Assembly: GCA_963663965.2 (NCBI GenBank)
Contig: CAXXFK010000036.1
Span: forward strand, 45,089-109,088
Source of the DNA: Sedimentisphaerales bacterium
Lineage (GTDB): Bacteria > Planctomycetota > Phycisphaerae > Sedimentisphaerales > SM23-30
Length of the DNA stretch: 64,000 nt
Reading direction: 5' to 3'
Part shown: positions 3 to 10,116 of the stretch, one piece after another
How positions within the stretch are numbered: the first letter of the stretch is position 1
How the letters are laid out: the number at the start of each line of letters is the position of its first letter
Position numbers and translations under genes: made by a program
Notes under the pieces: model-generated
The model's database searches: none
What the model saw: only the letters and a program-made list of their open reading frames with translations
Told to the model about the DNA's origin: nothing

Positions 3-752
3 TTCGCGTTGCATGGTCTGGCCCGTCAATTAGAAACGCTTCAGGTATTGAAGCAGCAGTGTCAGCAGGACATAACGATCCGGGTAGTCGCCAGTATGTA
101 CGATGTGAGAACGAAACTGGCGCGTGAGGTATTGAATGAACTCCGTAAGAATTTTTCAACATATCTCAGTCAGACCGTTGTGAATTTTAATACGAAATTG
201 AAGGAAGCCGCCAGTTTTGGTCAGCCCATCAGTGAGTATGATCCAGCCAGTAAAGGGATGAAGGATTTTATGACGCTGGCTTCCGAAATAAGCTCGATCC
301 AGGCCGATACCGAGCGGATCGGCAGTGTGTCGGCGATTGAGCAGCAGCTGAAGAAAATCAGCCGGACGGCCGATCAATTGTTGAGCGAGTCAAGGCGCAC
401 GATTGGTGAAATGCCTGTGACAGAGCGTGAAACGAAGAAAACCATGACGCTCCAGGAAAAGATCGATTATTTTTATGGGGTACGTAAGGAAGGGGACCGA
501 ATCCGGTTTATGGCGCTTTATCCGAATGCCAAAGAGGTCTGTCTTGCGGGTGATTTCAACGGCTGGCAGCCTGAGAAAACCCAGTTAAAGTCCATGGATG
601 AGAAGGGACGCTGGGCCGTCGATTTACCACTGGATAGCGGCACCTACCGTTACCGTTATGTTGTCGATGGGCGCTGGCAGCAGGATCCGTATAATGAATC
701 GGTTGAGCAAAATGAATTTGGCGAATATAACTCACTGGTAGAGGTGCAATAA
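3..752 (+). CDS. ParA/Soj-family ATPase (5'-truncated by window edge) with C-terminal CBM48/AMPK-beta-type glycogen-binding domain
   Basis: Soj-like C-terminal motifs (SMYDVRTKLAREVL, NTKLKEAASFGQPISEYDP), then a linker and a CBM48 signature (V-LAGDFNGW, YRYRYVVDGRW-DPYN, NEFGEYNS). The frame is open to the window start. Confidence 0.88.
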   Translation, partial: FALHGLARQLETLQVLKQQCQQDITIRVVASMYDVRTKLAREVLNELRKNFSTYLSQTVVNFNTKLKEAASFGQPISEYDPASKGMKDFMTLASEISSIQADTERIGSVSAIEQQLKKISRTADQLLSESRRTIGEMPVTERETKKTMTLQEKIDYFYGVRKEGDRIRFMALYPNAKEVCLAGDFNGWQPEKTQLKSMDEKGRWAVDLPLDSGTYRYRYVVDGRWQQDPYNESVEQNEFGEYNSLVEVQ

Positions 753-753
753 G

Positions 754-2325
754 ATGTCCCCCCCTGATCCGGCTGAAAAGGGCAAGCGAGGCATCGACTC
801 GATTGCCCATTTGTTTTTATCGCAAAATAATTCATCGCAGTCCCGTCCACCGGTTCATCGCAAGCCGCCTCAGGTAGAAGACCATAAAACGCCCCAGCAT
901 CATCCAGGATTGGATGAGGATGACGCTTCGGAACCGGCGCCGGCGGAAATATTGATCAGCGCTCATTTGAGGCATCCGGTGCGTAAAGCGGGATTGTACG
1001 CCGCATATTTAACGCGTCGCGGGGACGATATCCGGTTGGTGAACGTCGACAGCTATGAAGCGGCCTTGATCAAACTGGAATCGCTTTCCAGTCAGCCGCG
1101 GGATGACTGGGATCATCCGGGTCTGAAGGATTCGTTGGTTCTGTGCGAAACGGAAGATATTCAAAACTGCCTGATTCCTACCCTGGTTGAAGCGGCCTAT
1201 GACTGCGATAATTTATTGATCAATATTGATCCTTCGTTTATGAATAAGACGGCTGAATTAATGGCCAGTTTCAGTCATATCACCATTCTGACCGAATGTT
1301 CAAAGGACAGTATCATCGAAACCTACCAAGCGGTCAAAAAATGGTCTTCTTATCTGCGTTCCGATCAGGAGTTGGGGTTGTTTATCTGCGAGGCTCCCGA
1401 TAATGAGACGGCGGATGAGGTCTACTATAAAATAGCGGATACGACCCGGCAGTTTCTCAAAAAGGTTATCGTGCCGGCCGGGTGTCATGTCGTACCCGGC
1501 AGTTACGACGATGAGTTCGAAGAGGTGGCTGAGGTTGAAGCCGAACAGGGGACGATTGTGTCAGATGCTGAGGAATCAGTCAGGGCAGAGGGCACGATCC
1601 CCATTCAGCCGGCTATCAATGAATCGCATCTGGAGGAACTGGCCTCAATCGTGGAACCGGTTTTGGGAAATGAACCTGAGGATCACGCGGAGAACCCCGG
1701 AACATTGGATGCTGAAATGAATGAGAACCCTTCCGCAGAGATAGGGACAGAGCCGAACTCCAATCAAACAGCCTCACAGGAGCAGGTGACTATGTATACT
1801 CCGTTGGAAATATCCCAATCCAGAAACGAAAGCCATCAGGCGCCGCCGAAGTTATTCCCCGCGGTCTATGCCCCGGTGTCATTACATAAATTGCCCGGAG
1901 ACGACCGGGAACTGTTGCAGGTCTTACAGAACAGTCTGGCCCAGTGGCTGGTGACGATACCGGGGGCGCTGCCGGTGCCCTTGCCTGATTTTGGTCAGTT
2001 TGAACAACCGGCGTTGCTGCTGCTGGATGGGGCGGGGCGTTTTCATGTTCTGGCCGCGACGTTGTCGAGCCAGATCGGCTTGCTGGAGTCCGCCCTGGAA
2101 TATCGCCAGTGGTTTTTAAAAAATCGAATGGGATTGATGCGGATGTTCCAGCAACTGCAATTTAATCCGGGCACTGAACCGGGTATCATCCTGATCAAGC
2201 CCTCTTATAGCGAGAACCAGAAAACGGCCGCCCGTTCATTGCCGGCCATGACCTGTCAATTGATGAGTCTGTGCTTTTTTGAAATGGGAGAGAATAAGGG
2301 CATGCTTGTAACCCCCTTATCGTGA
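754..2325 (+). CDS. Hypothetical protein: degenerate FlhG/MinD-like domain, acidic linker, possible degenerate PD-(D/E)XK-like C-terminal domain
   Basis: 523 aa ORF starting 1 nt after the ParA stop. ITILTECSKDSIIETYQAVK...ADEVYYKIADTTRQFL resembles the FlhG C-terminal half. No Walker A motif is visible. Confidence 0.55.
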   Translation: MSPPDPAEKGKRGIDSIAHLFLSQNNSSQSRPPVHRKPPQVEDHKTPQHHPGLDEDDASEPAPAEILISAHLRHPVRKAGLYAAYLTRRGDDIRLVNVDSYEAALIKLESLSSQPRDDWDHPGLKDSLVLCETEDIQNCLIPTLVEAAYDCDNLLINIDPSFMNKTAELMASFSHITILTECSKDSIIETYQAVKKWSSYLRSDQELGLFICEAPDNETADEVYYKIADTTRQFLKKVIVPAGCHVVPGSYDDEFEEVAEVEAEQGTIVSDAEESVRAEGTIPIQPAINESHLEELASIVEPVLGNEPEDHAENPGTLDAEMNENPSAEIGTEPNSNQTASQEQVTMYTPLEISQSRNESHQAPPKLFPAVYAPVSLHKLPGDDRELLQVLQNSLAQWLVTIPGALPVPLPDFGQFEQPALLLLDGAGRFHVLAATLSSQIGLLESALEYRQWFLKNRMGLMRMFQQLQFNPGTEPGIILIKPSYSENQKTAARSLPAMTCQLMSLCFFEMGENKGMLVTPLS

Positions 2326-2384: not shown

Positions 2385-5300
2385 TTAATTTTTACGGAGC
2401 AGTATTATCCAGTCTGCTGATGGTTCGGAAGGGGGATTTCCCAGCGAGACCAGTTTGCCAGCCTTAATGGTTTTAATGGAGCCATTCTGCAAAGGGCCTC
2501 CTGTTCGGGGATTATACCATTTTACGAAAAAACGTCCGGTCGCATTGGTCAGATCCAGTTGAGTCGTATCTCCATTGGGCAGGTAAACGACATAAACGTT
2601 ATTGGGTTGCGCCAGGCAATATTTTTCATTGGAATGGGCCTCATTGCCGATTAACGGGTCCGCATTGGTCATCTGCCAGAACGGGATATGGTTATTATGG
2701 AAGAAATCCAAGGCAATCCGGCAGTAATCCCAGGATTGGTCACGGCTGCGGTAGTCTTCACAGACCAGATCACTCTGAGGCAACTGGTAACCGAAGTAGT
2801 ATTCCACCCCGGCGCCACCGGCCATTAAATTGCCCCAGAGGGTGGCTTTACGGATATCATCGATTGACTGGACTTTGGCGCCATCTTTTCTGGTACCCTT
2901 ATAGCCCTGATAGCCCATATCCGGGGGCACACCGGTATCGGCGCCATTTTGTTCATCGTTGGCAACCACCCAGGGCCGGTTGGCGGCAGCCGATTCTGTG
3001 ACCCACTTGAGTGTCCGTTGATGAACGGCGTTCCAACTGTTTTGGAGCGAGGCGCCGGTCAGGCGGGACCGGTCGCCTAATAAGGGCGGGTAGACTTTGT
3101 CCTGCTGATCGGGATAGGTATGAATGACGATTGGGTGGTGATAAGGATCGAGGGCGGCAATATAATCCGCCATCGCGTTGATTTCGTCCGTTGTCTGGGT
3201 GTTTTCTTCGCCGATATTCCAGTTGAGAGCCAGGTTATGAGCAAAACGCGCGATCAATTCCCGGCAATACAGTTTGCGTTCCGGGCCGAGTTTGCCGCCG
3301 TCCAGTGATTCGGGTACATTTGCCGGCCCGTTCTGACCGCGCCGGTTATCGTCGATTTCGGTTTCCTGTAATTTGAAGTGCAGATACAATCCTCTGGCTG
3401 TGGCATGGTCAAATACCATTCCCCACTGATCCAGCTTGGAGCAATCGTAATGCATTTTATCCTCCCGCGCCACAAAGGGCCAGACATTGTCGCCATCGCC
3501 TCCGGCGTTATAGGGCAAAAAGGAAAAGGCGTTGAGGCCTTTGCCGGCCAGATAATTCAGGGCGCCGATCAAGCCCTTGCCTTTATCCTGCTTCCAGGTG
3601 GGATCGCCCGGTTGCCAGTCGGCAATATGGGGTTGCCAGGTTTTCAGAGGGGCAGATGGCTTGCGGGCCTGGGTATTGTCAAAATCGGCATAAGCCAGCA
3701 GGGTTTCAGGGGCGTCGGGACCGGCCTTGAGGAAATAATCTTTGGAACCGGCAAACTGCAGGTAATGCTTGCCCACATAATCCAATCTGCCCAGGGCACG
3801 GAAGTCAGGGGCGGTTTTGTCGCTGGCGGTGACTTGAAAACGACCTGTCAGGCCATCATACGGTTTTTGGGGTTTGCCGCCGCCATCGAGAGCGACTTTA
3901 TCGCCTTTGGTGAACGATATTACGTAGGTCCACCGGCCGGGTTTGTCGGGCGCCAGATGCGCGCGCCAACAAGTCCCTGAAACGGCAGAACTGTTAGCGG
4001 CATTGCCATCAGCGGCAAAATAGCCCGGTATCTGATAGGAAGGTGAACCGGATTCATGGGTGAAAGTGACGGTCAGGTTGTAATCGGTAAAGGGGTTGGG
4101 GTTGTTATCCTGTTCACGCGCGGATGGGCCGGCAAGATTGAGTGTTACTTTGTGCCATTGTCTGAGTTGACCGGAAATGGTTACCTGACTGTTACTGTCA
4201 GGTAATTGTTGTGAAGGTGGGGGAATGACCGGCTGGGTTTTTACGGTCTTATCTTCAGCGGCGGCATCTTTATCCAGATTCATCTGGATCCAGTTGGCCA
4301 GGGTGGAACTGCCCATGCCGTAGCCTCCGGGCAATTCACGCAGATCGCGCGTTTGAATTTTAGGAGGATCGCCCCAATGTTCAGGATACTTCTTTTCAGG
4401 TTGCGGGTAGGGAGGTTGTGTTTCAAAATCGGATTGATTGACCCAGCCGGCTTTGATTGGTTCGCCATTCATGTAGCGTTCATAGAAATTCCGTTGTGCC
4501 GGATAAGCAACGGGATACTGATCGAAAACCTCGCCGTGACCCAATACCCGTGGGTCTTCCTGTTCGGTCAGTTTCGCAGTCAGCCAGTCGCTCATTTCGG
4601 TGCGACGCCGGGTATATTGAGGATTATCCGCTAAATTTTTGACGCAATCGGGATCGATTTTCAGATTGTAAAGTTCTTCAAGCGGGCGTTTGCCAAAGTT
4701 CAATGCCCAGAACGGATCGGACCGATTTTTACGGTGCGCATCCAGGATGAAGGTTTTGGTGGGGCTGCCATCGGTATTCAGATAGCCGGTTTCGGGATTG
4801 CCGGCCGGCCAGCGATCCGGCTCCCAGTTGTGCAGATATAGAAAGTCATTACGAATCAGGCCACGGATGGGATAGCCTGCATCATTGGGCCGGCCTACGT
4901 CGTGCCGTTCTTTGCCAATCAGCATATAATCCCGTCCGGGTTCGATCTGGCCGGATTGACTGCTGGTTAGAATCGGGAGCAGGCTTTGGCCGGTTATGGC
5001 CGCCATACCGCTATTTTGCTGAGATAAGCCGGTGACGGCGAGGAACGTCGGGGCCAGATCCACAAAACTGACATAATCGTTGACCGTGCGGCCGGGGTGA
5101 GTGATGCCTTTGGGCCAGCGGATTGCCAGCGGAATATGATTGGAGGCCAGATAGGCCTGACCCTTGACGCGGGGAAAGGGCATGCCGTGGTCGGAGGTGA
5201 AAACCACCAGGGTGTTGTCAAGCTGACCACGTTTTTTTAATTCCGCCAGCATCATCTGGAGGTGCCGGTCTACGTGTTCTACTTCGAAGGCATAATCCAG

Positions 5301-5969
5301 CATGTCCGTACGTACCGTTTCGTTGTCGGGCCAGTAATCGGGAACATGGTCTACCTGATCCAGGTTTTTGTCACCTTTGTTGATCCCTGATCCATATTCA
5401 TATCCCCGATGCGGTTCGTAGGCGCCGAACCAGAAAAACCATGGCTGGTCTTTGGGGGCGGCGTCGAGAAAATCTTTGAAATTGGCGGTGTAGTCATTAT
5501 TGCTAATGCCACGAGCCGGCGGGGTAGCGGTTCGAGATTGATAGGGTTGGCCGCAAAGCTGACGGGGTTTATCATTGGCATCGTTAGCAATTCCCGGGGC
5601 CCATCCTTTGCCGGTGGCGCCGACGAAATAGCCGTGTTCGATGAGGGCTTCGGGGAAACTTTTGAATTCGGCCGGGAAAAATGGCTGATGGTTGGCGGCC
5701 GCGCGCAATTGCCAGGAATAGCGTCCGGTCAGGATAATCGCGCGTGATGGGGCGCACTTGGCGTTAGGCGTGAAGGCATTGGCGAATAACACCCCTTCGC
5801 GCGCCAGGCGGTCAAAGGCGGGGGTCTTGATCCAGGGAGTTGTGCCATAGGCTCCAGCGTGGCAACCCCAGTCATCGGCTATGGCGAACAGGATATTGGG
5901 TTGTTCGGAGGCATGGCTGAAAGCGCAAGAGATTCCGGTTAACATGCCAATATACAGCCATTTATACAT
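2385..5969 (-). CDS. Secreted sulfatase fused to DUF5060-like, GH-like TIM-barrel and C-terminal beta-sandwich modules
   Basis: Signal peptide, [10 protein letters not shown], formylglycine motif [11 protein letters not shown] and FTSDHG. The second half has WHKVTL..NPF, WNIGEEN, VVANDEQ and KWYNPRTG. Confidence 0.85.
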
Positions 5970-7965: not shown

Positions 7966-10116
7966 ATGAGGTTTGTTGTTTTGTGTTTATTGGCGATGGG
8001 ATGGGGGGTGGCTGGTTGTCTGGGGGCTGAGGTTGAGGGGCGTGAGCCGCTGTACCGGGAGTCGTTGCGGCCGCAGTTTCATTTTACGGCGCGGTACTGG
8101 GATGAGTATCAGTTGAATCCGCCGAATCATCATGAGGGATGGATAAACGATCTGAACGGGCTGGTCTATAACCAGGGGGAATATCATCTGTTCGCACAGC
8201 GGTGGTGGTCGGCGTGGCTGCACGCGGTGAGCCGGGATCTGATCCACTGGGAGGAGATGCGGCCGGCGTTTGGGAAGGGCGGGCCGTTCGGTGGGACGCA
8301 GTCGGGGGGCGGGGTGGTGGATGTGCATAACTGTTCGGGATTGGGAAAGGGCGATGAACCACCGATGATCGCGTTCTGGAGCAGTACGGATAATTTGAAT
8401 CAGTGTATTTCGTATAGTCTGGACCGGGGGCGGACCTGGACGAAGTATGAGAAGAACCCGGTATTGGTGCATCCGTATCGTGATCCGCGGGTGTTCTGGT
8501 ATGAGCCGGATCAGAAGTGGGTATTGATCCTCTATGGGCCGTCGGATGAAGGGCGGCGGGTGTTGCGCTATGGTTTTAATGGGGAAGAGAATGATGCGCA
8601 TGATTTACGCGCGTACAATGATGAGCAGTGGATGGTATCGGTGGTACGAGTTTGCGCGGATGGTCAAGTCGTGGTGAACGATACGGAGGGGAGAAGCGAC
8701 GGGCGGATCGATATCGGCAGGCTGAATATCGGGACGGAGGCGTTTTATGTGGGGGCGAAGGCGAACGGTTCGGAGTATCTGAAAGGGGAGATTGGGGAGG
8801 TGCTGGTGTATGACCGGGTGTTGTCGGATGAGGAAACGGAATGGACGCTGGGCAGGTTGCGGACGAAGTGGGGATTGTGCGACGACAAAAGTGATGGCAA
8901 GCTGGTATCGGATGGGCTGGTGATGCATCTGGATGGGGGGGAAGGTGTGGTTGAAAATGGGGGGCGAGTGACCGGTTGGAGGGATTTGTCGGGATTGGGG
9001 CATGATGTGAAGGTGGCGGGGGACGGGGGTATGCCCGGATATATCGAAAATGGGTTGAATGGGCGGCCAGTGGTGCGGTTTGAGGGTGGGCAGGTATTAC
9101 GCGGACCGGCGGTGCTGGGGGAGGGAGATGATACGTTTACGATGGTGGCATTGTGGCGGCGGGACCGGGCGGATGGGTCGCAGGTGGTGTGTGAGCAGAA
9201 TATCGGGCGGCGTGAGGCCGGGCGGCGGACGGCGCTGTTGACGGTGTGCCGGGAGGAACGGGAGAATGTGTATCTGCTGTTTGAGTCGAGGAATCTGCTG
9301 GAGTGGAAGAAACTGGACAGTTCGATTCCGAACTCATTTGAGTGTCCGGATATGTTTGTGCTGCCGGTGGAAGGTGAGCGGGATCGGAAGGTGTGGGTGG
9401 TGATCGATGGGAATGGGGATTATGTGACGGGGCAGTTTGACGGCAAACAATTTACCGGCACCGCGCCGAAACGGAAAGGGGATTATGGGCGGAATTTTTA
9501 CGCGACGATGACCTTTGAGAATATGCCGAAGAGCGATCCGAGACGGATCCAACTGGCCTGGATGCGAGGGTGGGATGATTATCCCAAGACGATGCCGTTT
9601 AATCAGCAGGTCAGTTTTCCGTGCGAATTGACGTTGCGGCAGGTGGGAGAGGCGTTGGTGTTGTGCCGGTATCCGATCGATGAGATTAAGCGGCTTTACC
9701 GGGATACCTTCCGGTTGGAAAACCAGAGGCTGAGGCCGGGCGAGAATCCGCTGGCGGGGTTGGAAGGGGAGTTGTTTGATATTTCGATGACGGTGGATGT
9801 GGCGAAATCGAAGGCGTCGGCGCTGACGCTGCATATGCGGGGGAATGAGGTGCGCTATGATATCACGCGCGGGGTTTTAGCATCGGTGGGATCGGAGGTG
9901 GTTCTGACGCCGAGGGATGGGCTGGTTGAGATCCGGGTGTTGATGGACCGGTTATCGATTGAGAGCTATGGGAACCGGGGCGAGGTGTCGATTACGAATA
10001 TCGCCTATCAGCAGGATGGCCGGCCGGATCTGGCACTGGAGGCGGTGGGGGGTGAGGTTCGGATTGTGTCGCTGGTGTCTTGCAAGTTGGGATCGATGTG
10101 GGTATATGGAGGATGA
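7966..10116 (+). CDS. GH32 beta-fructosidase/levanase-like enzyme with inserted LamG-like domain
   Basis: Signal peptide and GH32 catalytic motifs WINDLNG, RDP and FECPD. C-terminal beta-sandwich (LMDRLSIESYGNRG). Confidence 0.85.
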   Translation: MRFVVLCLLAMGWGVAGCLGAEVEGREPLYRESLRPQFHFTARYWDEYQLNPPNHHEGWINDLNGLVYNQGEYHLFAQRWWSAWLHAVSRDLIHWEEMRPAFGKGGPFGGTQSGGGVVDVHNCSGLGKGDEPPMIAFWSSTDNLNQCISYSLDRGRTWTKYEKNPVLVHPYRDPRVFWYEPDQKWVLILYGPSDEGRRVLRYGFNGEENDAHDLRAYNDEQWMVSVVRVCADGQVVVNDTEGRSDGRIDIGRLNIGTEAFYVGAKANGSEYLKGEIGEVLVYDRVLSDEETEWTLGRLRTKWGLCDDKSDGKLVSDGLVMHLDGGEGVVENGGRVTGWRDLSGLGHDVKVAGDGGMPGYIENGLNGRPVVRFEGGQVLRGPAVLGEGDDTFTMVALWRRDRADGSQVVCEQNIGRREAGRRTALLTVCREERENVYLLFESRNLLEWKKLDSSIPNSFECPDMFVLPVEGERDRKVWVVIDGNGDYVTGQFDGKQFTGTAPKRKGDYGRNFYATMTFENMPKSDPRRIQLAWMRGWDDYPKTMPFNQQVSFPCELTLRQVGEALVLCRYPIDEIKRLYRDTFRLENQRLRPGENPLAGLEGELFDISMTVDVAKSKASALTLHMRGNEVRYDITRGVLASVGSEVVLTPRDGLVEIRVLMDRLSIESYGNRGEVSITNIAYQQDGRPDLALEAVGGEVRIVSLVSCKLGSMWVYGG

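Follow-up and report, generated by a model that had tools for sequence, protein, structure and literature searches.

A ParA-CBM48 fusion and its ParB-like-peptide partner in Sedimentisphaerales: a candidate positioning module for storage glucan

What does a bacterial cell do with a ParA-type ATPase that ends in a glycogen-binding domain, and what would such a protein move? The question is raised by the start of a 64,000-nucleotide stretch of DNA from a Sedimentisphaerales bacterium (GenBank assembly GCA_963663965.2, contig CAXXFK010000036.1, positions 45,089 to 109,088 of the forward strand), referred to here as the window. Its first gene, cut by the window edge, encodes a ParA-CBM48 fusion protein, and a partner gene follows directly. 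An initial annotation had proposed that the pair positions glycogen granules. Our analysis showed that the two-gene module, ParA-CBM48 plus a partner with pseudo-FlhG and NucS-like domains, is real and conserved. Summed over all readings other than immunity, it is likely to be a switch of the ParAB/McdAB type, and tethering of glucan to the nucleoid is the single best mechanism, with a probability of about 0.4.

How bacterial glycogen is placed and shared out is an open question, and we know of no review of ParA/MinD cargo that includes storage polysaccharide. No experimental work on a ParA-CBM fusion was found in the open-access literature. The statement of the initial annotation that no such system has been characterised holds for experiments, but not for the architecture, which has already been catalogued in silico and hence is not new. 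Li, Burroughs and Aravind (bioRxiv 10.64898/2026.10.19.760177, October 2026) list it, dead ParA and nuclease included, as a predicted immune system in the text that we compared.

The ParA-CBM48 protein and its partner

The ParA-CBM48 gene (G000:C36:44626-45840; the labels for genomes, contigs, loci and families are our own, G000 being the source genome of the window) is an open reading frame (ORF) of 404 aa that starts 463 bases before the window. Walker A, motif 2 and Walker B are encoded in its 5′ part, which precedes the window (G000:C36:44626-45088). An alternative in-frame ATG lies 12 codons earlier; the chosen Met was taken as the start because relatives start there. Pfam matched AAA_31 at residues 1-181 (169 bits, cut-off 27), AMPK1_CBM at residues 330-404 (50 bits, cut-off 26.8) and CBM_48 at residues 314-381 (38.1 bits, cut-off 22.4), while no NCBIfam equivalog was reached. 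The join of a Soj/ParA part to a CBM48/AMPK-beta domain, read at first from the 3′ end of the gene, is thereby confirmed on the full ORF. A frameshift or chance fusion is ruled out, since fusion is also seen in 141 of the top 150 representatives at 50% identity.

The deviant Walker A that was expected upstream is intact (KGGCGKT, residues 10-16), and the ParA-type catalytic residues K10, K15, D37, D39 and D128 are all present. The motif-2 Asn is replaced by His (H43), as in the other ParA of the same genome. The closest solved relative of the N-terminal part is the chromosomal ParA of M. xanthus (8ray, E 2.6e-53), and that of the C-terminal part is the glycogen-binding domain of AMPK beta. R191 and K220 align to R209 and R238 of 8ray, with residue numbering anchored on the D60A site of that chain, which bears out the basic residues noted earlier at the Soj DNA-binding positions. 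The R238E change in M. xanthus ParA abolishes DNA binding (PMC12462528). The catalytic and DNA-binding residues are nearly invariant across 46 relatives from other phyla. ParA-CBM48 is thus predicted from its residues to bind DNA and to dimerise with ATP.

In the alignment, W343, R373 and W380 of the CBM match W100, K126 and W133 of AMPK beta, whose two tryptophans are spaced by 33 residues in the AMPK chain; K126 is presumably a glucan-binding residue too. W100 and W133 have been reported as key glucan-binding residues (PMC4339375). Within the class of the window, Phycisphaerae, W343 is retained in 50/51 members, R373 in 51/51 and W380 in 49/51. These retentions suggest that the CBM48 would bind glucan. 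The AMPK beta domain and plant PTST1 (PMC4339375, as far as compared) share the CBM48 subtype, the two binding tryptophans and its use as a targeting module on a protein that is not a glucan enzyme; the difference is that here it sits on a bacterial ATPase predicted to bind DNA. CBMs that have lost binding tryptophans were found at two loci, L094 (G147) and L194 (G077). Between ATPase and CBM, the helical linker of the initial annotation stands as a conserved pattern (S275 and A278 invariant, L281/L282 nearly so, 30 relatives aligned); from this pattern the linker is probably helical.

The stop codon of the ParA-CBM48 gene (750-752) and the partner ATG at 754 are separated by one base, as first noted, and a GAGG lies upstream of this ATG inside the first gene. 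A promoter scan gave hits at chance level (5 against 4.5 expected). The partner is a real gene: orthologues lie directly downstream in 37 of the 54 class loci examined, and 12 of these 37 were outside the alignment from which the profile was built.

The partner diverges fast, relatives being 14-31% identical to the window protein. No Pfam match was obtained for the partner or 14 relatives; a weak NucS_C match was seen in one relative (E 0.0023). A word-indexed search with the partner returned itself as the sole match among 8000 scored candidates, an Atlas search returned leads only, all below 0.8, and a profile of its C-terminal domain had no PDB match by sequence. Because sequence searches yielded none, relatives were gathered through the gene neighbourhood. 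The partner was modelled with AlphaFold on a 45-row alignment (mean pLDDT 73.7); a single-sequence fold of the C-terminal domain (pLDDT 37.6) was not used. The model has two folded domains, with an acidic disordered linker before the C-terminal one.

The middle domain resembles FlhG. A profile of 14 partners matched FlhG 4rz2 at E 2.7e-14 and also matched FleN, and comparison of modelled residues 60-267 with FlhG by VIA gave Z 13.2 and an rmsd of 4.3 over 178 aligned residues. FlhG/FleN (4rz2, 5j1j, 8p53), of MinD-like fold, are the best profile and fold match for this domain; unlike them, the partner has no Walker A and adds an N-terminal peptide and a C-terminal NucS-like domain. At its P-loop position there is no glycine-rich lysine motif. 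A separate, intact FlhG is encoded elsewhere in the same genome (C28:388257).

The C-terminal domain (residues 383-509) was matched by VIA to the catalytic domain of NucS (2vld) with Z 9.4 and an rmsd of 2.7 over 105 aligned residues. The catalytic motif of NucS is D...(D/E)xK. These catalytic residues are absent from the window protein, and no E-x-K column was found in the alignment of relatives. In other phyla the pseudo-FlhG and NucS-like domains each have a gene of their own, or the peptide is followed by a NucS-like domain only.

Table 1. Coordinates of the module and of the adjoining pilus cluster. Positions are those of the window unless a locus label is given.
Feature	Position	Strand	Evidence
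ParA-CBM48 gene, 3′ part (residues 156-404, last 249 codons)	3..752	+	Reading of the genome contig, Pfam
Basic positions for nonspecific DNA binding: R191 (108-110), K220 (195-197), K222 (201-203)	108..203	+	8ray alignment, conservation
Conserved, probably helical linker motif (about residues 265-288), then a spacer of variable length	330..401	+	Alignment pattern, from which helicity is inferred
CBM48/AMPK1_CBM domain: W343 (564-566), R373 (654-656), W380 (675-677), N398 (729-731)	477..749	+	Pfam, AMPK beta alignment, conservation
Partner gene, 523 aa	754..2325	+	ORF, conservation of neighbourhood
ParB-like amphipathic N-terminal peptide of the partner (residues 9-23; model helix 15-22)	778..822	+	Pattern, model
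FlhG/FleN-like pseudo-ATPase domain without Walker A (about residues 60-267)	931..1554	+	Profile, Foldseek, VIA
NucS-like domain of restriction-endonuclease fold, without acidic/lysine catalytic motif (about residues 372-521)	1867..2316	+	VIA, alignment, pLDDT
Type IV pilus/type II secretion assembly cluster, upstream of the window	L001:8934-14130	-	PilM confirmed; PilN, PilO, PilB, PilT and PilC by appearance

A ParB-like peptide and the proposed cycle

The most conserved element of the partner is its short amphipathic N-terminal peptide, which reads KRGIDSIAHLFLS in the window. In 38 of 80 loci the gene downstream opens with this peptide pattern. Across many phyla it often reads LGRGL, five letters identical to those of the ParB of the window's own genome, and a pattern scan of that whole genome (7.2 Mb) found the peptide only in ParB and in this partner. 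In M. xanthus, ParB binds to a pocket on the ParA dimer through L11, L15, L18 and I19, and its R13 stimulates hydrolysis (PMC12462528). R12, I14 and I17 of the window peptide fall at the positions of R13, L15 and L18. On the ATPase side, the pocket residues L150, L152, L155, L187 and L192 of M. xanthus ParA become V133, L135, F138, V170 and C175, so that ParA-CBM48 is hydrophobic at 5/6 ParB-pocket positions, and Y81/E82/D110 become Y60/D61/E93. By analogy with M. xanthus, the partner peptide is predicted to be a ParA-docking, ATPase-activating element.

The ParB-like peptide is a portable tag on unrelated bodies. At three loci it was found on a helix-turn-helix (HTH) protein (L122:1614-2969), on an HTH protein with RodZ_C (L142:9077-9523) and on an AAA_22 ATPase (L174:5536-6462), each directly downstream of ParA-CBM.

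These parts suggest the following cycle. The ATP-bound ParA-CBM dimer would grip chromosomal DNA through R191/K220 and would hold alpha-glucan through its two CBM48 domains. The ParB-like peptide of the partner is predicted to dock at the edge of the dimer, trigger hydrolysis and free the tether, and repeated cycling would spread storage-glucan particles over the nucleoid or pass them on. The partner might be placed on DNA by its dead NucS-like domain, or on another structure by its dead FlhG domain. We infer peptide docking, activation and the localisation of the partner from these likenesses. That the module is the first active positioning system for bacterial storage-polysaccharide granules, with a ParA motor gripping glucan and a dead-enzyme partner whose ParB-like peptide sets the release site, is put forward tentatively. 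If true, such a system would be ancestral in a planctomycete class, present in more than 10 phyla, and would overturn the published guess of immunity. The module makes glycogen placement directly testable through two tryptophans, one peptide and a cultured carrier.

Compared with known systems, the module is closest to Soj/ParA with ParB/Spo0J (M. xanthus 8ray; PMC12462528, as far as compared), which has the closest relative of the ATPase and with which it shares the basic DNA-binding residues, most of the ParB pocket and a ParB-like partner peptide. It differs in its C-terminal CBM48 and in H43 for the motif-2 Asn. The partner, unlike ParB of ParABS systems, has neither a ParB CTPase nor an HTH domain, and there is no parB or parS at the locus, ParB and parS-like sites being on another contig. 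With McdA-McdB of carboxysomes the module shares an orphan ParA-type ATPase and a short N-terminal helix of the partner that would bind the dimer (PMC12139897, PMC11407121, in the text available). There, cargo is bound by the partner, whereas here the candidate cargo module is on the ATPase; and no glucan gene is present at this locus, though GH57 is adjacent in one other lineage. In the available text of these two papers neither glycogen nor granules occurs.

The peptide also raises the question whether ParA-CBM serves in chromosome partition, as a second ATPase or as the main one, is likewise activated by the chromosomal ParB, and so couples glucan to segregation or replication control. We consider this very unlikely. 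It is true that the single ParB of the genome has three parS-like sites upstream, no adjacent parA and an N-terminal peptide of the same kind as that of the partner, and that the best solved relative of the fusion is a chromosomal ParA. However, against 8ray and Soj a higher score (E 2e-55) is reached by a CBM-less ParA of the same genome (C28:481704), which keeps D110 and E117 and whose orthologues, 44-52% identical, were found in 5/5 fusion-less genomes checked. On the strength of its score and of these orthologues, it is the likelier chromosomal ParA. Moreover, no fusion orthologue was detected in 44 of 151 class genomes, and the fusion comes with a dedicated partner of its own. The common type of peptide may still allow cross-talk. 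The ParB gene with its parS-like sites lies at L035 (G000:C7:96119-97798), and the CBM-less ParA is on another contig. No parB was found beside the orthologue of the CBM-less ParA in 5/5 other genomes, in the 6-10 kb fetched. Chromosomal parA and parB thus seem to be split in this class.

Spread, descent and the immunity proposal

A search with residues 230-404 gave 826 proteins at E 0.001 among 992 candidates. Of the 120 matches listed, 117 carry both domain types, and the source names of the listed relatives are Phycisphaerae, Sedimentisphaerales and Anaerohalosphaeraceae. Database relatives include a protein of Anaerohalosphaera lusitana, which is a cultured carrier. In the class sample of 151 genomes, carrier status was first set at E 1e-60, at which 105 genomes matched, with one match each. 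Two further orthologues, a divergent one (G077) and one with a frame break (G083), bring the total to 107. Of these 107, 96 have the CBM in frame, and in G083 it is there across the frame break; two (G105, G119) lack it, and in eight it is unchecked. A broader profile, applied to nine of the 44 apparent non-carriers, found no fusion in them. Decay was observed as a break in the ATPase frame (L203, in G083) and as CBM loss (L093, in G105; L098, in G119).

A scan of 5/64 parts of the GTDB collection, with the best 80 of 583 relatives kept, showed fusion at 71 of the 80 loci. Record titles name Omnitrophota, Myxococcota, Desulfobacterales, Rokubacteria, Gemmatimonadales, Acidobacteriota, Eisenbacteria, Zixiibacteriota, Auribacter, Margulisiibacteriota and Tepidisphaerales. 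A MerR-type HTH gene lies directly upstream of ParA in 7 of the 80 (L110, L116, L119, L123, L129, L133, L135).

The preprint predicts that the architecture is an anti-phage system. In that scheme, carbohydrates tied to infection, or their depletion, would be detected by the CBM, multimers of ParA would limit the infection, and the dead nuclease domain would serve as a DNA sensor. The case made in its section 29, as compared, rests on fast divergence of the CBM, a sporadic distribution, and partners that are a dead ParA and a dead restriction endonuclease (REase). The second variant of its ConB5 group has, like the window, a ParA with C-terminal AMPK1_CBM, an inactive second ParA and an inactive REase. 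It differs in that the dead ParA-family and dead REase domains are fused in one protein in the window, and section 29 is silent on a ParB-like peptide. Our comparison covered this text; the figures and supplements of the preprint may hold distribution data bearing on immunity.

The fast divergence of the partner and its restriction-endonuclease fold favour immunity, and independence from glycogen genes is compatible with it. However, the second variant is called sporadic, with a fast CBM, while in this class the fusion is common and vertically inherited, with a conserved CBM. It is single-copy, and in a FastTree tree of 53 class proteins (G083 left out) every family with at least two rows forms one group or an open fork, except f10, where the long-branched G077 stands apart. 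Among 51 class members the identity of the CBM is 64% within and 45% between families, near that of the ATPase (71% and 50%), and the binding residues are fixed, so the argument from rapid divergence does not hold here. The fusion is also kept, with stable synteny, in genomes of 0.8-1.7 Mb. Flanking genes are mostly metabolic and housekeeping by Pfam. In a PADLOC screen of the first 150 of 171 called neighbours (threshold 1e-10, genes above 700 aa left out), six matched, five through generic domains and one as a full-length candidate family, the background rate being unmeasured. Vertical, single-copy inheritance fits a housekeeping role. The dispute is a clear one, the preprint pointing to immunity, and inheritance, conservation and neighbourhood to housekeeping; immunity is the weaker reading here and we regard it as quite unlikely.

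Alpha-glucan genes and other possible cargo

Tethering of glucan would be expected to leave traces among glycogen genes. The window's genome, 94.6% complete, has a GT4 beside a GH57 (L034:5570-8185, minus strand), a GH57-GT5 fusion of 917 aa (L033:7001-9751, minus strand), two phosphorylases over the cut-off, a GH13-debranching fusion of 1468 aa (L038:4703-9106, plus strand) and a free CBM48. The last is a stand-alone protein of 108 aa (G000:C10:94592-94918, minus strand), and similar free CBM48 genes are present in many class genomes. E. coli glgC, glgB, glgX and malQ had no tblastn match at 1e-8 in this genome and no GT3 was found; the classical glg pathway was for this reason dropped as a test, and the pathway was followed through GT3, GT4, GT5, GH57, GH13, GDE and phosphorylase. 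The GT4 may be a glycogen synthase, to judge by its best NCBIfam match (below the cut-off) and the GH57 beside it. An ORF a short way downstream of the GT4-GH57 pair (G000:C32:12082-13101, minus strand) looks like a reverse transcriptase of group II intron type.

Outside the class, 50 carriers were picked from the 71 fused loci; one of them (G169, locus L128) is an unpublished genome that makes up one row of these tallies and on which no conclusion rests. A GT5-family match was found in 38 of the 50, in 35 at E 1e-55 or better, the strength of classical GlgA, and the positive genomes include some of 0.8-1.7 Mb. At 11 of the 80 loci a GH57 gene precedes ParA-CBM by 626-957 nt on the same strand, and two further loci have a GH57 branching enzyme and a GlgB no more than 3 kb away. 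In Omnitrophota a single-pass membrane protein with a weakly CBM-like outer domain stands between GH57 and ParA-CBM (L145:7414-7986, L134:7309-7887, L150:912-1484). To the eye its conserved N-terminal helix resembles the partner-type peptide, but its score ranked only at the 49th-87th percentile among 654 background genes, and it was not counted.

Several findings weigh against tethering of glucan. Absence here means not found in mostly draft genomes, kin genomes are not independent, and the 105 class carriers include the eight with CBM unchecked. In the class, the fusion is independent of glycogen synthesis genes. A synthase candidate (GT3, GT4 orthologue or GT5) was found in 101/105 carriers against 43/46 non-carriers, and phosphorylase in 92/105 against 44/46; GT4 alone was found in 94/105 against 24/46. 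Thirteen of 15 phosphorylase-negative class genomes are carriers. A fusion common without glycogen synthesis genes had been named at the outset as evidence against granule positioning, and this was partly observed: four of the seven class genomes without a detectable synthase keep the fusion. Three of these four, G070 (98% complete, 2 contigs), G088 (100%) and G053 (98%), have no match for synthase, phosphorylase, GH57, debranching enzyme or GlgB, the first two no GH13 whatsoever, and all three keep every CBM binding residue. Neither GT5 nor GlgB, the enzymes looked for besides GlgE but not GT3 or GH57, was found in eight of the 50 carriers outside the class; seven of these eight form one syntenic lineage, and GlgE was absent in the 3/3 tested. 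The 11 loci with adjacent GH57 are also one lineage, and none of the genes flanking the module, here or in the class neighbourhoods scanned, is an alpha-glucan gene.

The module itself adds further points of this kind. The partner is not beside ParA-CBM in 17 of 54 class loci, being absent there in families f2, f6, f18 and f19 and in G077 and G119. In the peptide, G10 stands at the position of M. xanthus L11, and in the ATPase E117 and V116 are lost (Q100, P99). A cargo module on the ATPase and not on the activator inverts the logic of McdAB, and nothing ties the partner to glucan contact. Gene co-occurrence thus does not single out glycogen: the picture is mixed, with a GT5 match in most carriers outside the class but no dependence on a synthase within it, and of the original proposal the ParA/MinD positioning anatomy, ParB-like peptide included, is upheld, while glycogen granules are not established as the cargo.

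These counts leave room for a housekeeping ParA switch or positioner whose cargo is held by the partner, be it envelope or motility machinery, a membrane anchor or DNA. The CBM48 would then be an anchor, an input of carbon state by which glucan sequesters the ATPase, or a binder of some ligand other than glycogen. We judge this somewhat unlikely. The peptide tag is found on varied bodies (pseudo-FlhG, NucS-like domain alone, HTH, HTH with RodZ_C, AAA_22 ATPase), as would be expected of adaptors for different cargo. In the class, FliG was found in 96/105 carriers against 19/46 non-carriers and tracks the fusion better than any glucan gene. Family f7 has FliG and the fusion in the same 4/20 genomes and f3 in 0/3. 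Both genomes with CBM-less orthologues (G105, G119) lack a FliG match, and FliG passes the cut-off in 4/4 carriers with no synthase match. In 3/3 genomes of the window's family a type IV pilus assembly cluster sits next to the module in divergent orientation.

On the other side, FliG was found in only 9 of the 50 carriers from other phyla, by which the flagellum is ruled out as a universal cargo. Chemoreceptor arrays are ruled out too, as CheW does not follow the fusion (0/17 in family f5). Nineteen class genomes have FliG-like genes and no fusion, the f7 match counts as one event among kin, and the glucan-binding residues are retained as if serving alpha-glucan. Motility may be one use of the module and not the defining one, and tethering of glucan to the nucleoid is still preferred. 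In families f2, f4 and f5 there are divergent FliG-like genes that fall well short of the family cut-off (E 1e-28 to 1e-54), a few of them with frames of 585-697 aa; they may belong to a remodelled or repurposed flagellar motor.

Two further genes of the window were read by eye. Convergent with the partner gene is an ORF of 1194 aa (2385-5969, minus strand) in which a sulfatase-like part is fused to a second carbohydrate-active part, and beyond it is a glycosidase-like ORF of 716 aa with an insert (7966-10116, plus strand). In two small genomes (G190:C4; G193:C1 and C7), open frames of 13,532 to 30,624 aa with GT5 and branching-enzyme domains were found.

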